From positions 1 to 53,125 of the forward strand of contig SVTL01000015.1 in assembly GCA_015063795.1 (NCBI GenBank): a stretch of DNA of 53,125 nt, written 5' to 3'. A program made the translations under genes and the position numbers. The notes under the pieces were generated by a model. That model was not told where the DNA came from, ran no database searches, and saw only the letters and a list, made by a program, of their open reading frames with translations. The stretch comes from Oscillospiraceae bacterium (GTDB lineage Bacteria > Bacillota > Clostridia > Oscillospirales > CAG-272). Each line of letters starts with the position of its first letter. Position 1 is the first letter of the stretch. Below, piece by piece: positions 7,829 to 10,232 of the stretch.

Positions 7829-8082
7829 GGGATACCGAATGGCAGACAACAGGAAAAACGGACGATACTTCATTCCAATGATCTCCATGGAGATTTTTTG
7901 CGGAAAAAGCAGATGACCGTCTGATTGGCGGAGTTTCCCGTTTGTCGGGATATGTGAATCAGACACGCAGGGATGAACCAAATACGATTTACTGCATTGC
8001 CGGAGATATGTTTCGAGGTTCGGTGATTGATTCCGAAGTCCGCGGCGTTTCTACCATTGAAATCATGAATATGATATTATGA
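7829..8082 (+). pseudogene. Remnant of a 5'-nucleotidase/metallophosphoesterase N-terminus (frameshifted, no start codon, truncated)
   Basis: Frame 2 reads ...RTILHSNDLHGDFL and then stops. Frame 1 continues DRLIGGVSRL...NTIYCIAGDMFRGSVIDSEVRGVSTIEIMN and then stops. These are the metallophosphatase NDxHG and GDxxxG motifs. Confidence 0.55.
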
Positions 8083-8307
8083 TATCTCCGGATGTGGTCT
8101 TTTTTGCCACACCTCCGATCGACGGTGTGTTTCAGGAATACGTCGCTCACGAAGCGGAGCTGTGCTTCAAGCTTCCGGAAAAGTGAATCTGAAAGGGATC
8201 GTGACCGACGTATTCGATCTGGACGATGTCCAAACGGCCATGGATCACAGCATAAGCAACAAAGCGGATATCGTCAAGGCGGTTATCCGAATCGCAAAGG
8301 ATGCTTG
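8083..8307 (+). pseudogene. Remnants of a zinc-type MDR alcohol/polyol dehydrogenase (central fragment joined to C-terminal fragment, Rossmann domain deleted)
   Basis: Two fragments: ISPDVVFFATPPIDGVFQEYVAHEAELCFKLPEK* and LKGIVTDVFDLDDVQTAMDHSISNKADIVKAVIRI*. They match the substrate-entry region and the C-terminal strand of MDR dehydrogenases. Confidence 0.5.
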
Positions 8308-8318
8308 AAACAAAAAAG

Positions 8319-8402
8319 CAATCCCTTTCCACTTCGGTGGGCGAGGGATTGTTTTTTATAAAAAAGCTCTCTGCTCTTCTCAGCAGAGAGTTCTTTTTTT
8401 TA
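8319..8402. terminator. Two consecutive hairpin terminators; the second is bidirectional (A-run/hairpin/T-run)
   Basis: Hairpin caatccct...agggattg followed by TTTTTT. Then AAAAAA, hairpin gctctctgct...agcagagag, and TTTTTTTT. Confidence 0.7.
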
Positions 8403-8415
8403 TGCTTTTATGCCT

Positions 8416-8646
8416 TCAATCCTCCTCCAACAGCTTGGAGGGGGATATGTTTAATACCTGCGCAATCTTGAACAGCGTCTCCAGCGAAACACCGCGAACC
8501 GTTCCGGTGCCCTCGACTTGTCCTAAGAAATTCACGCTTTTATCGATCATTTCCGCGAAAGCTTCTTGTGTGTAGCCTGCCTTTTTTCGATAATAAGCGA
8601 TTTTCAAACCCAATGTAATATATTTATCTGCAAACTCTGTTTTCAT
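8416..8646 (-). CDS. XRE-family HTH transcriptional regulator (76 aa)
   Basis: Cro/C1-type HTH (GYTQEAFAEMIDKSVNFLGQVE). SD AGGGGG 8 nt upstream. Confidence 0.8.
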   Translation of the reverse strand: MKTEFADKYITLGLKIAYYRKKAGYTQEAFAEMIDKSVNFLGQVEGTGTVRGVSLETLFKIAQVLNISPSKLLEED

Positions 8647-8695
8647 TCTATCGCCCCCTGTATAGTTATAGTTTACAGGGAAACGAGAAAAATTA

Positions 8696-8727
8696 TTACT
8701 TTCCTAAAGTAAAAGATTATTTACTTT
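8696..8727. promoter_or_regulatory. Operator-like inverted repeat TTACTTTcctAAAGTAA plus a third TTACTTT half-site, upstream of the XRE-76 gene
   Basis: Perfect 7-bp inverted repeat with a 3-bp spacer at 8696-8712, repeated half-site at 8721-8727. TGTATAAT -10-like box at 8742-8749. Confidence 0.45.
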
Positions 8728-8788
8728 AAATCAATGATAATGTATAATAGGTGATGAATCATTTAACTGAGGTTAAAAAAAACAAAAA

Positions 8789-8841
8789 CCTGCTGTTTCA
8801 TCGGTCATCGCACGATTGAAGAAAAGAAAAAAACTCACTGT
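8789..8841 (+). repeat. Copy A of a ~53-nt direct repeat: frameshifted 5' coding fragment of a SLOG/DUF1273 gene (TCCFIGHRTIEEKKK...)
   Basis: About 95 % identical to copy B at 9365-9416. Homologous at protein level to the N-terminus of the intact gene at 9750. Confidence 0.75.
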
Positions 8842-8878
8842 GATTTTCCGAATACAGAGAGTTTTTCATGCGCATGAA

Positions 8879-9214
8879 TTATTTATTTCTTAAAACAGCC
8901 TTTGTGGTTTTGATAACCTCCGCAAGGGACTTGAGTTCTTCCGCAGAGCAATCCGAAAGAATATCGTCAATCAACTTCATGGAAACATGATTGCTCTTGA
9001 CTAAGCTGCCATATGCGATTTCGTCAAGAGTTACACCAAGCGCGTTTGCGATATTAACTAATGTGGGCAAGCTCAGTTTGGTTGCCGCACGTTCGATATG
9101 AGAAATGTTGGACGGCTCAATGCCGGATTCTTCTGCAAGCTTTGCTTGCGTCCATCCTTTTGCAGTACGAATCTCTTTGATTCTGCTGCCGATCGAAATA
9201 TAATCAATCCCCAT
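8879..9214 (-). CDS. XRE-family HTH regulator (112 aa) with a C-terminal helical extension
   Basis: Start MGIDYISIGSRIKEIRTAKGWTQAKLAEESG with SD GAGGTG 7 nt upstream. The track start MYIIL at 9283 has no SD. Confidence 0.75.
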   Translation of the reverse strand: MGIDYISIGSRIKEIRTAKGWTQAKLAEESGIEPSNISHIERAATKLSLPTLVNIANALGVTLDEIAYGSLVKSNHVSMKLIDDILSDCSAEELKSLAEVIKTTKAVLRNK

Positions 9215-9250
9215 GGAATTCACCTCATCATTTGCACTGAAGTTATTGTA

Positions 9251-9297
9251 TATCCGATTCGGATATGGTAAAATAATGTACATATCCGATTAGGATA
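9251..9297. promoter_or_regulatory. Two palindromic operator-like sites, TATCCGAtTCGGATA (9251-9265) and TATCCGAtTAGGATA (9283-9297), upstream of XRE-112
   Basis: Perfect and near-perfect 15-bp palindromes spaced 32 bp apart in the regulator's own promoter region. Confidence 0.5.
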
Positions 9298-9364
9298 CAG
9301 AATAATATTTATTTGTTTTTTCTTGTGCAAACGATACACGCGGTGAGTATTTTGACAAAATATC

Positions 9365-9437
9365 CCTGCTGTTTCATCGGTCACCGCACGATTGAAGGAA
9401 AGAAAAAACTCACTGTTCTTTCACAGCGAGCTTTCCA
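9365..9437 (+). repeat. Copy B of the SLOG 5' fragment repeat (PCCFIGHRTIEGKKKLTVLSQRA)
   Basis: About 95 % nt identity to copy A over 52 nt. Protein similarity to the intact SLOG N-terminus extends about 25 codons. It runs into the antisense of the next regulator gene. Confidence 0.75.
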
Positions 9438-9440
9438 ACC

Positions 9441-9641
9441 TTATTTGCGTGTCGGCTTTACATTGGAATCGGGTTTGATATCGCCCTCAATGGGGCCGTT
9501 GGCATCCTCAAAGGCTTTGATGTGCTGTCGGATCAAAACCAGCACCTGACTGTTCACACTTCTTCCCTCGTAATCGGCAACATAAGTAATTTTGTTCAGC
9601 ATTTCCTCTTCGATCCGAATCGATACGCTCTTGATAGCCAT
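9441..9641 (-). CDS. Ribbon-helix-helix (Arc/CopG-like) DNA-binding protein (66 aa)
   Basis: SVSIRIEEEMLNKI...YEGRSVNSQVLVLIRQHI fits the RHH beta-alpha-alpha pattern. SD GAGGTG 6 nt upstream. Confidence 0.65.
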   Translation of the reverse strand: MAIKSVSIRIEEEMLNKITYVADYEGRSVNSQVLVLIRQHIKAFEDANGPIEGDIKPDSNVKPTRK

Positions 9642-9749
9642 AAGATCACCTCAAAACAAATATATGATGTATTTATTTTAGATGCATTATGTGATATAAT
9701 GGCTAAAATAGATATATGGTATATCTATAAAATTTTAGGAGATGAACCA

Positions 9750-10232
9750 ATGACATCGAAGAACATCCTGCATACCTGCTGTTTCATCGGTCGTCGCAAG
9801 ATCGAGGAAAGCGAAGGATTGACGTTGAGCATAAGGCAACATATTGAAAGACTGATCACGGAAGAACGGGTGAACACCTTTTTGTTCGGAAGCCGATCGG
9901 ACTTTGACCGCCTGTGTCTGAAGACGGTGAGCGAACTGCAGAAACAATACCCGCACATCAAAAGAATCTACGTGCGGGCGGAATTCCCTTTCATTGACGA
10001 TACCTACAAAGCCTATCTGCTGCGATCCTACGACGAAACCTACTACCCCGAAGCGATCCTCGGTACCGGACGAGCGGTCTACATCAGGCGCAACCGCCAC
10101 ATGATCGACAACAGCCGCTTCTGCATCGTTTACCTCGACGAAGCCTCCGCCCCCCGCAACAGCGGCACCCGTCAGGCAGTCGCCTATGCCAAAGCGAAAG
10201 GCGCCATCACCGTCAACATCGCAGAAGCATAA
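9750..10232 (+). CDS. SLOG-family (YpsA/DUF1273-like) protein (160 aa)
   Basis: N-terminal CCFIGRR motif typical of DUF1273 proteins. SD tAGGAGatg 7 nt before the ATG at 9750. The track ORF start at 9522 is an upstream extension without an SD. Confidence 0.7.
   Translation: MTSKNILHTCCFIGRRKIEESEGLTLSIRQHIERLITEERVNTFLFGSRSDFDRLCLKTVSELQKQYPHIKRIYVRAEFPFIDDTYKAYLLRSYDETYYPEAILGTGRAVYIRRNRHMIDNSRFCIVYLDEASAPRNSGTRQAVAYAKAKGAITVNIAEA

Follow-up and report, generated by a model that had tools for sequence, protein, structure and literature searches.

We focus here on an array of three small regulator genes upstream of a SLOG/DUF1273 (YpsA-like) gene in SVTL01000015.1, a metagenome-assembled contig of an Oscillospiraceae bacterium; the window is the whole stretch of DNA analysed, 53,125 nucleotides (nt). 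As the original prediction, made from the sequence alone, had described, the three genes stand in a row on the minus strand. Two of them, XRE76 and XRE111, encode helix-turn-helix (HTH) proteins and the third, RHH66, encodes an Arc-like ribbon-helix-helix (RHH) protein, and XRE76 and XRE111 are each followed by a short copy of the 5' end of the SLOG gene, which we call a stump. In other genomes, each of these regulators, together with its intergenic region, is the normal single partner of a SLOG gene. We think it rather probable that the array is a fossil stack left by two additive acquisitions of regulatory cassettes, and not a programmed switch.

The evidence comes first of all from homologous loci. 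The SLOG family is large, with at least 574 loci in a profile scan of 185,579 representative genomes. We sampled 80 loci of other species, obtained by a genome scan with the SLOG family profile and mostly from rumen and gut Oscillospiraceae, Acutalibacteraceae and unclassified Eubacteriales, and classified the regulators at 67 of them. Nearly every SLOG gene in this classified set has one small divergent regulator directly upstream. XRE76 is the single divergent partner at about 28 SLOG loci (82–96% amino-acid identity) and RHH66 at about 21 (74–91%), while homologues of XRE111 adjoin SLOG at five (L075, L032, L014, L052 and L059; 76–89%); where the contexts of XRE76 homologues were inspected, SLOG was next door in three of three. 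There are at least eight cassette types, seven with an HTH and one with an RHH regulator, the others being HTH80, HTH82, HTH103, XRE91 and XRE112b; among homologous loci, the type to which the XRE111 cassette belongs is labelled XRE112. Every cassette of the array is collinear with intact one-regulator modules, from a border hairpin through the first 30–50 nt of SLOG, and the predicted operators, the promoters and the ribosome-binding site are conserved within each type. Together with the recurrence of arrays at 10 of the 67 loci and their consistent polarity, described below, this bears out the proposal that promoter-carrying regulatory cassettes entered serially at the 5' end of SLOG. Judged by the ratio of nonsynonymous to synonymous substitution rates (dN/dS), which is 0.02–0.06 (0.05 for XRE76 to its nearest relative), the regulators are under strong purifying selection.

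Table 1. Features of the regulator array, from left to right, with their positions in the window.
Feature	Position	Strand	Description
Hairpin H0	8364-8393	both	Left border of the module; predicted bidirectional intrinsic terminator AAGCTCTCTGCTcttctcAGCAGAGAGTT, A tract 5', T tract 3'
XRE76	8416-8646	-	76 aa, Cro/C1-type HTH; outermost cassette
Cassette 1 divergent promoter/operator region (predicted)	8647-8788		Between XRE76 and stump 1
SLOG 5' stump 1	8789-8828	+	Codons CCFIGHRTIEE; without usable start codon
Hairpin H1	8829-8866		Arms 8829-8841 and 8854-8866, loop 12 nt; weakened border hairpin of the XRE111 cassette
XRE111	8879-9214	-	111 aa, HTH with C-terminal extension
Cassette 2 divergent promoter/operator region (predicted)	9215-9364		Between XRE111 and stump 2
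SLOG 5' stump 2	9365-9402	+	Codons CCFIGHRTIEG, in frame with TTG 9352; nhmmer E = 1.3e-4
Hairpin H2	9403-9436		Border hairpin/terminator of the RHH66 cassette
RHH66	9441-9641	-	66 aa, Arc-like RHH; regulator proximal to SLOG
Proximal divergent promoter/operator region (predicted)	9642-9749		Between RHH66 and intact SLOG
Intact SLOG/DUF1273 (YpsA-like) gene	9750-10232	+	160 aa; constant frame starts at Cys-Cys codons, 9775

The anatomy of the array (Table 1) is supported by open reading frames (ORFs) and by domain matches above the Pfam gathering cut-offs. XRE76 matches HTH_3 at 6e-11 (42.6 bits) and XRE111 at 1.5e-16 (60.6 bits), the cut-off being 23 bits, and residues 8–40 of RHH66 match Arc at 26.6 bits against a cut-off of 20.4, with a match to the PHROG 'Arc-like repressor' at 5e-5. 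XRE111 had been listed as a protein of 112 residues; the gene is real, but that count took in one codon before the ATG. The description of the three regulators as unrelated holds for RHH66, which has a different fold, but not for XRE76 and XRE111, which are 32% identical across the HTH domain. Each regulator does have its own distinct promoter-like hexamers and palindromes, inverted repeats being present in all three intergenic regions. Those of cassette 1 lie at 8692-8713 and 8720-8741, followed by a predicted plus-strand promoter (TTTACT at 8720-8725, a spacer of 17 nt and TATAAT at 8743-8748) and a GAGG ribosome-binding site. Across 21 XRE76-type intergenic regions the TTTAC boxes and the -10 element are kept, and alignment with these regions shows that a deletion of about 7 nt removed the SLOG start codon, the ATG, from the array copy. 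Cassette 2 contains two ATATCCGATTCGGATAT-like predicted operator copies inside inverted repeats (9243-9267 and 9281-9305) and keeps a GGTGAG ribosome-binding site (9342-9347) and the TTG start; the predicted operators and the ribosome-binding site are kept in all five XRE112-type intergenic regions. The proximal region, strongly conserved across 19 RHH66-type intergenic regions, has inverted repeats at 9660-9681 and 9703-9724, an extended -10 element TGATATAAT at 9692-9700 and an AGGAG ribosome-binding site.

The segment is AT-rich, as had been noted, with a GC content of 0.30–0.45 in the array (0.24–0.31 in its intergenic parts) against 0.50–0.60 in the flanks; at third codon positions it is 0.70, host-like, in SLOG and 0.45–0.57, unlike the host, in the regulators. 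The absence of a nearby recombinase also stands: recombinase, integrase and transposase families are missing from the gene calls of the adjoining 6 kb or so on each side. Between 7800 and 10500, known RNA families gave nothing near a gathering score. Of the three hairpins, H0 was picked up on both strands by a terminator scan and has a folding energy of -17 to -19 kcal/mol (z about -5.2), H1 fits a fuzzy version of the border-hairpin pattern (-11 to -12 kcal/mol, z about -2), and H2 is strong on the minus strand (terminator scan; -20 kcal/mol) and weak on the plus strand (-12.7 kcal/mol, no T tract).

Comparison between genomes shows a fixed frame around a slot whose content varies. The left edge of the frame is the border hairpin, with the consensus AAAAACTCTCTGC-loop-GCAGAGAGTTTTT, which at least 37 of the 67 modules have at a distance of 6–23 nt beyond the end of the regulator gene. 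It accompanies five regulator types, and its genomic surroundings can be unrelated. In 596 kb of locus DNA, 40 of 43 matches to the hairpin pattern are at a module left border. Compensatory changes are seen in 7 of 11 stem pairs, and the variants of the hairpin track host lineage, not regulator type. Because A and T tracts flank the stem, the hairpin appears to behave as a bidirectional intrinsic terminator. The idea that it is a genome-wide repeat was rejected, since it occurs once in the 53 kb outside the array, at chance level, and elsewhere almost only at module borders. One of the three off-border matches (L020, 4537-4568) is a second border-type hairpin (AACCTCTCTGC...GCAGAGAGG) just 3' of a GNAT gene, 3 kb from the SLOG module. 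The right edge of the frame is formed by the conserved codons T-C-C-F-(F/I)-G-H-R at the start of SLOG.

What lies between these edges can differ completely between close relatives. L073, with an RHH66 cassette, and L089, with an XRE76 cassette, have the greA-lysS synteny in common and SLOG proteins that are 96% identical; their DNA homology breaks at the T tract of the hairpin and restarts exactly at ACCTGCTG, with unrelated cassettes of 323 and 394 nt in between. Identity is 83% across 2.4 kb of left flank, on the lysS side, and 95% across 1.6 kb of right flank. SLOG and 1.2 kb downstream of it are 95% identical in this pair, against the 83% of the left flank, and this divergence step at the cassette suggests a recombination tract that ended in the slot. 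L025 (HTH80) and L046 (RHH66) show the same swap pattern, with near-identical SLOG genes (95–96% in both pairs), and the greA-lysS site holds XRE76, HTH80 or RHH66 depending on the species; the greA and lysS genes are not in the 53-kb window. Because these close-relative pairs lose and regain homology at the hairpin and the Cys-Cys codons, the exchanged unit is, from the alignments, the regulator, both promoters, the ribosome-binding site and the first 5–9 codons of SLOG. SLOG similarity compared by regulator type was 0.690 against 0.680, the observed difference being reached in 119 of 2000 permutations, and inheritance of whole modules, in which SLOG phylogeny would track regulator type, was rejected on this independence. 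Cassette exchange, which had been offered as an alternative reading of the array, is thus borne out on an evolutionary time scale by these two pairs, but not as a programmed, ongoing switch, for which we found neither a recombinase within about 6 kb nor a variant among ten near-clonal contigs.

The stumps preserve the other half of the record. The two repeat copies between the regulators (8789-8832/8841 and 9365-9408/9416) show 95% identity and are offset by a 1-nt indel within a run of A, and a third copy, 80% identical, lies at 9775-9818 inside the intact SLOG gene; all three translate as CCFIG(H/R)R. A 33-mer of the repeat is present only at the two fragment sites in 53 kb, where the chance expectation is 0. 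Stump 1 is matched by nhmmer with E = 3e-6 at 8786-8824. The two segments had been described as about 53 nt long, about 95% identical and encoding the CCFIGHRTIE N-terminus, all of which is correct except for the last 17 nt or so (AAAAAACTCACTGT), which are not clearly SLOG coding sequence and form the left arm of the terminator hairpin, the right arm standing 6–12 nt further on. Collinearity with intact modules stops at 8824-8831 for cassette 1 and at 9384-9395 for cassette 2. The frame of stump 2 (9352-9549, plus strand) continues as a 65-codon nonsense ORF antisense to RHH66. If the XRE111-side promoter fires, it would give a transcript antisense to RHH66 and possibly a nonsense peptide.

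These fragments had been thought to match the resident gene over about 25 codons at the protein level and to come from a different allele, neither of which we could reproduce. About 11 codons agree (CCFIGxRxIEE), and the DNA is identical over the first 18 nt. Over 36 nt the stumps match each other at 34 positions and the resident gene at 30–32, while 70 SLOG genes of other genomes reach about 25 of 36 on average and 30 at best, and the lineage-specific codons ATC GGT C.. CGC are common to the stumps and the resident gene. Because they are closer to the resident gene than the genes of other genomes are on average, and because they have these codons, the stumps are best read as old copies of the lineage's own gene and not as imported alleles. 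It also fits the sequences that stump 1 is older than stump 2, and XRE76 the oldest cassette, because the ATG is missing from stump 1, whereas a ribosome-binding site and the TTG start are still present at stump 2.

Stacked arrays of two or three regulators are found at 10 of the 67 classified loci (L013, L014, L021, L035, L039, L042, L052, L056, L059 and L060). XRE76, the commonest type, is outermost in six of the six arrays that hold it, which would have a probability of about 1/216 under random order, and because of this we infer that new cassettes enter next to SLOG. In L021, a stump of 153 nt (about 51 codons), 96% identical to the resident gene, precedes a hairpin and then an XRE91 cassette; stump and hairpin are separated by 45 nt, for which no informative match pointed to an origin. 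L013, L042 and L035 retain the start codon and 3–4 further codons, fused to the hairpin, and in L052, L059, L014, L056 and L039 the old promoter is gone and the regulators follow each other 25–60 nt apart in one orientation. The left junction is at codon 4 in L013, L042 and L035, at about codon 18 in the present array, at about codon 56 in L021 and inside the old promoter in L052, L059, L014 and L056. A single defined insertion point, as originally proposed, is therefore not seen: only the right edge, at the Cys-Cys codons, is constant. A further array was found near an XRE76 homologue and may belong to the same species as L059.

Within the lineage itself, an identical SLOG protein is present on 13 contigs, ten of which were compared and were at least 99.9% identical without a structural variant; nine of the ten, from separate JGI/ENA assemblies, span the array with 0–2 mismatches in 2.6 kb, although near-clonal contigs are a weak test of long-term stability. 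It had been argued that an identical arrangement without length variation would point to an old, fixed duplication; the arrangement is indeed identical in these ten contigs, but they are near-clonal, and single-regulator sites are common in other species. L008, a contig of the same strain, starts 144 nt upstream of SLOG inside the array, which may be an assembly break caused by the repeats.

From these observations we infer the following history. A chromosomal SLOG/YpsA-like gene would be kept under a small, divergent, self-regulating repressor, which in the Oscillospirales of rumen and gut makes up a replaceable cassette together with the two promoters, the ribosome-binding site and the initial codons of SLOG. 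Cassettes have been exchanged between lineages, probably as a clean replacement in most cases, through recombination in the frame elements or in wider flanks. In the lineage studied here, on the other hand, the incoming cassette would have joined the resident gene at the Cys-Cys codons, while the hairpin end of the newcomer joined further downstream, at the A-rich codons around 17–20 of the resident gene. A close relative may have supplied a circularised fragment that integrated in the Campbell manner, which would yield a duplication of resident sequence, or there may have been homology-facilitated illegitimate recombination at a microhomology between GAAGAACT in typical genes and AAAAAACT in the hairpin arm. 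Every gain would have pushed the older promoter and repressor outward and left an 11-codon stump fused to the terminator of the newcomer, with the cassettes arriving in the order XRE76, XRE111 and RHH66.

Several points weigh against this account. A simple linear double crossover cannot duplicate resident sequence, so that a circular or sister-chromatid intermediate has to be assumed. No relative proved close enough to reveal this lineage with one or two cassettes, as the next SLOG homologue is 65% identical, and the regulators are old, with a synonymous divergence (dS) of 0.7–1.5 to their nearest relatives, so that no donor can be named and no transfer is recent among the sampled genomes. The two internal junctions, moreover, are nearly identical over about 53 nt, including the left arm of the hairpin, and in each of them the pairing between this arm and its right arm is broken at one and the same position. 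Because two independent illegitimate joins would not be this alike, the second junction was probably copied from the first. This extra step may have been a tandem duplication between the repeats, after which the proximal cassette was replaced via a crossover in the hairpin loop, or a gene conversion between the two repeats. The two internal junctions of the three-cassette array in L042 (3100-3160 and 3510-3570) are also near-identical (CAAAAAAACTCTCTGCCrTGCGACAAAGAGTTTTT); junction copying thus recurs in an independent array, and no model that we considered explains it simply.

Additive stacking has to be compared with other explanations of the same locus. One of them, which we consider unlikely, starts from three complete regulator-SLOG modules in tandem, the first two SLOG genes being later deleted from about codon 18 to the next hairpin. 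Whole modules, from the hairpin to the SLOG stop codon, can move as units, as in L048 and L020, which have only the hairpin and SLOG in common; some genomes contain two SLOG modules at separate loci (L028/L050, L056/L080), and the left flank of the array is itself scarred by deletion, with a dehydrogenase pseudogene. However, two tandem co-oriented complete SLOG modules occur at none of the 80 loci, while regulator arrays occur at 10, and no junction contains a remnant of a SLOG 3' end. Unless gene conversion is added, this history also leaves unexplained why the 5' copies are 30–34/36 alike when the mean across origins is about 25, and why stump and resident gene in L021 agree at 96% across 153 nt. 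A chimeric contig, in which the repeats of strains with different cassettes had collapsed, would be suggested by metagenome assembly, by the short repeats and by the start of L008 inside the array; we regard its probability as negligible, given that nine further contigs span the array with 0–2 mismatches in 2.6 kb, that the repeats of 44–53 nt are shorter than reads and k-mers (k141 contigs) and that 10 other genomes have analogous arrays.

It is also conceivable, but very improbable in our view, that the locus is a programmed cassette system, either with the hairpin and the Cys-Cys codons as sites for a distant, integron-like recombinase or with the 53-nt repeats deleting to switch promoter and repressor. 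The cassette borders are sharp and alike in many genomes, the border element is a conserved imperfect palindrome, and its left arm AAAAACTCTCTGCYG loosely resembles, by eye, the SLOG 5' sequence GAAAACACCTGCTG, so that short similar sequences flank each cassette; direct repeats could, in principle, recombine. Against this, the neighbourhood of about 6 kb holds no recombinase, integrase or transposase family, and the left junctions are at many positions in different arrays. The synonymous sites of the Cys-Cys codons vary freely, which argues against a constraint at the DNA level, and the hairpin covaries like an ordinary terminator stem. No rearranged form was seen in ten contigs from separate samples, and collections of phages, viral contigs and plasmids contain next to no members of the family. 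A search of metagenome contigs with the lineage-specific 5' sequence TGYTGYTTYATCGGTCRYCGCA for empty sites, single-cassette states and paralogues gave two chance-level matches, the one that was read (L091) not being SLOG, in a collection evidently without rumen samples.

The question of why the stack persists is separate from that of its origin. Selection might keep the outer repressors, either to silence SLOG modules of their own type, like orphan immunity genes, or to add inputs to SLOG; we hold this to be improbable, and since it concerns maintenance, it is compatible with additive stacking. In all 11 arrays the outer regulators are intact full-length ORFs, with a median dN/dS of 0.03 against 0.02 for the proximal ones, although dS is saturated (0.7–1.5), so that relaxed selection since orphaning could go unseen. 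The outer regulators of L059, L014, L052, L056 and L039 have no promoter of their own and are arranged like an operon, which looks as if they were kept expressed, and the weakness of H2 on the plus strand would allow read-through toward SLOG. In the proximal intergenic region, on the other hand, no XRE76 or XRE111 operator is visible. A still bolder proposal, and a distinctly doubtful one, is that selection maintains the slot as the exchange site of a conflict system; repressor identity would be a polymorphic specificity and SLOG a harmful effector, acting for instance on cell division or through a nucleotide signal, that is released when the repressor is inactivated; the types would turn over under anti-repressors of phages and mobile elements, and orphans would be kept to silence modules of their own type. 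If true, orphan immunity-gene arrays would have their equivalent here at the level of transcription.

Under additive stacking, present control can be outlined as follows. RHH66 would now control SLOG, because RHH66 and its conserved predicted operators (9660-9724) are at the SLOG-proximal promoter, and operator motifs of XRE76 and XRE111 could not be made out by reading the RHH66-SLOG intergenic region. XRE76 and XRE111 would be intact, self-regulated orphans, and the outward promoters of their cassettes would drive only the stumps. Since H2 terminates weakly on the plus strand, some transcripts from the XRE111-side promoter may run on toward SLOG, antisense to RHH66. The outer repressors may be either recent orphans or still useful.

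Familiar functional categories do not accommodate the module. A type II toxin-antitoxin operon was rejected because regulator and SLOG are divergent at all 67 classified loci, and the matches of the regulators to the antitoxin models HipB, PezA and MqsA are all far below the cut-offs. A phage or plasmid module was rejected on the near-absence of the family from the corresponding collections: there was no match in 50,697 phage records, a single distant match in 2.9 million viral contigs, and three in plasmid records, which were distant and in large, chromid-like replicons. A known defence system was likewise rejected, as PADLOC matched neither SLOG nor RHH66 and gave only generic HTH matches for the XRE proteins; the best match of XRE76 was to 'control protein' models of restriction-modification (R-M) systems, at 7e-9.

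The array does resemble several known systems in part. Orphan immunity arrays of the Vibrio type VI secretion system (T6SS), and C-terminal displacement at Rhs and contact-dependent inhibition loci, also combine a constant gene with interchangeable modules and leave the displaced parts behind as a polar orphan array; for T6SS immunity arrays and Rhs loci, a conserved anchor and a homology-facilitated illegitimate join have been proposed (Kirchberger et al. 2017, PMC5361080). In the present case as well, the orphans are homologous to functional partners elsewhere, and the arrays grow in a polar manner with remnants of gene ends (this array, L021, L013, L042 and L035). The variable end there, however, is the 3' toxin domain and here the 5' end with its promoter; the orphans there are immunity proteins and here transcriptional repressors, and growth here is upstream, with a hairpin as second border, in a module that is not known to have a toxin-immunity function. 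Displacement arrays would thereby be extended from 3' toxin ends to 5' regulatory ends. Regulatory switching, as the work of Oren et al. 2014 is summarised in PMC9944727, places non-homologous regulatory regions between conserved flanks in close relatives, in intergenic regions of E. coli, and the L073/L089 and L025/L046 pairs show this arrangement. Here, in contrast, a whole regulator gene and the first codons of its target are switched, with at least eight alternatives across bacterial families, and old units can be stacked. The notion of regulatory switching, applied to non-coding DNA, would thereby come to include complete repressor cassettes.

Immunity regions of temperate phages and C-protein units of R-M systems likewise have a divergent Cro/C1- or Arc-type repressor, palindromic operators and mosaic, exchangeable units, but phage or R-M genes are absent here and control is exerted on one gene of the chromosome, in many cases adjacent to greA-lysS. 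Integron cassettes, too, are gained at one end by a fixed point, with older cassettes pushed away and palindromic borders; in the SLOG arrays, however, there is no integrase or linked tyrosine recombinase in the neighbourhood, the left junctions vary, the hairpin is terminator-like and the arrays are short (2–3 regulators) and apparently static. A SLOG gene with a framed, exchangeable repressor cassette and occasional stacks appears to be undescribed in the literature that we searched. Its significance lies in a coding body that is retained through exchanges of the entire control unit, of which at least eight versions are in use across a bacterial order, with borders defined at the nucleotide level, and in the readable stack of earlier control units that failed clean swaps would leave behind.

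The protein under this control belongs to an abundant YpsA-like family of rumen and gut Clostridia, the expression of which seems to be under unusual evolutionary pressure. The family assignment was to be checked with the Pfam model YpsA (PF06908), and at the sequence level it falls short, the 160-aa protein scoring 25.6 bits against a cut-off of 27.7. Among 477 homologues, most have a precomputed PF06908 match, and several are named DUF1273 family protein by NCBI. The fold, on the other hand, agrees. An AlphaFold2 model built on 38 family members (predicted local distance difference test, pLDDT, 89.1; predicted template modelling score, pTM, 0.86) has as its best Foldseek match in the PDB the B. 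subtilis YpsA structure 2NX2 (E = 8e-7, TM 0.71), followed by the SLOG domains of DprA and ThsA, and on this model the SLOG/YpsA-like call is right at the level of the fold. A sequence-profile search of the PDB with the same 38 members matched no chain, YpsA included. In YpsA, a GxD/E motif is among the nucleotide-binding residues needed for function. The Rossmann-like SLOG fold is common to both proteins and to DprA and the ThsA sensor domain, but here there is no gpsB neighbour, and the gene has its own divergent repressor and the CCF(F/I)GHR motif. Judged from this invariant N-terminal CC motif and an identity to YpsA of 14%, the family is distinct from YpsA. The synonymous positions of its Cys-Cys codons vary freely.

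The SLOG copy next to the array is the most divergent and most GC-rich member of the family; its best homologue is 65% identical, while others are often 75–99% identical to each other, and it has R15 where at least 90% of the family has His (GHR to GRR). Being such an outlier, this copy may have evolved fast or changed in function. When overproduced, YpsA blocks cell division (PMC6459960, PMC7376506), and if the protein studied here harms cells in the same way, it would need tight repression.

Around the array, the GNAT gene on the right is the only neighbour in common with other loci (L041, L086 and L020), and it is 86–87% identical to the L041 and L086 copies. The left flank is scarred by deletion. 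Directly left of the array, at 8079-8308, two short ORFs match residues of about 110–147 and 309–346 of zinc-dependent alcohol/sorbitol dehydrogenases of about 350 aa; together they make up an internally deleted, N-terminally truncated pseudogene without a Pfam match. A possible piece of a metallophosphoesterase was seen by eye at 7942-8082. Among other SLOG loci, L061 (1792-2855) has two SLOG genes tail to tail, one of 158 aa on the plus strand and one of 145 aa on the minus strand, the only side-by-side pair among the 80. In L094/L095 (the context of P0202), a three-regulator array by SLOG has a HipA-type kinase toxin pair on one side and AAA_14/DUF4143 and Fic genes on the other. Conflict-type genes abound in these surroundings, whereas many other loci have the housekeeping genes greA-lysS as neighbours.

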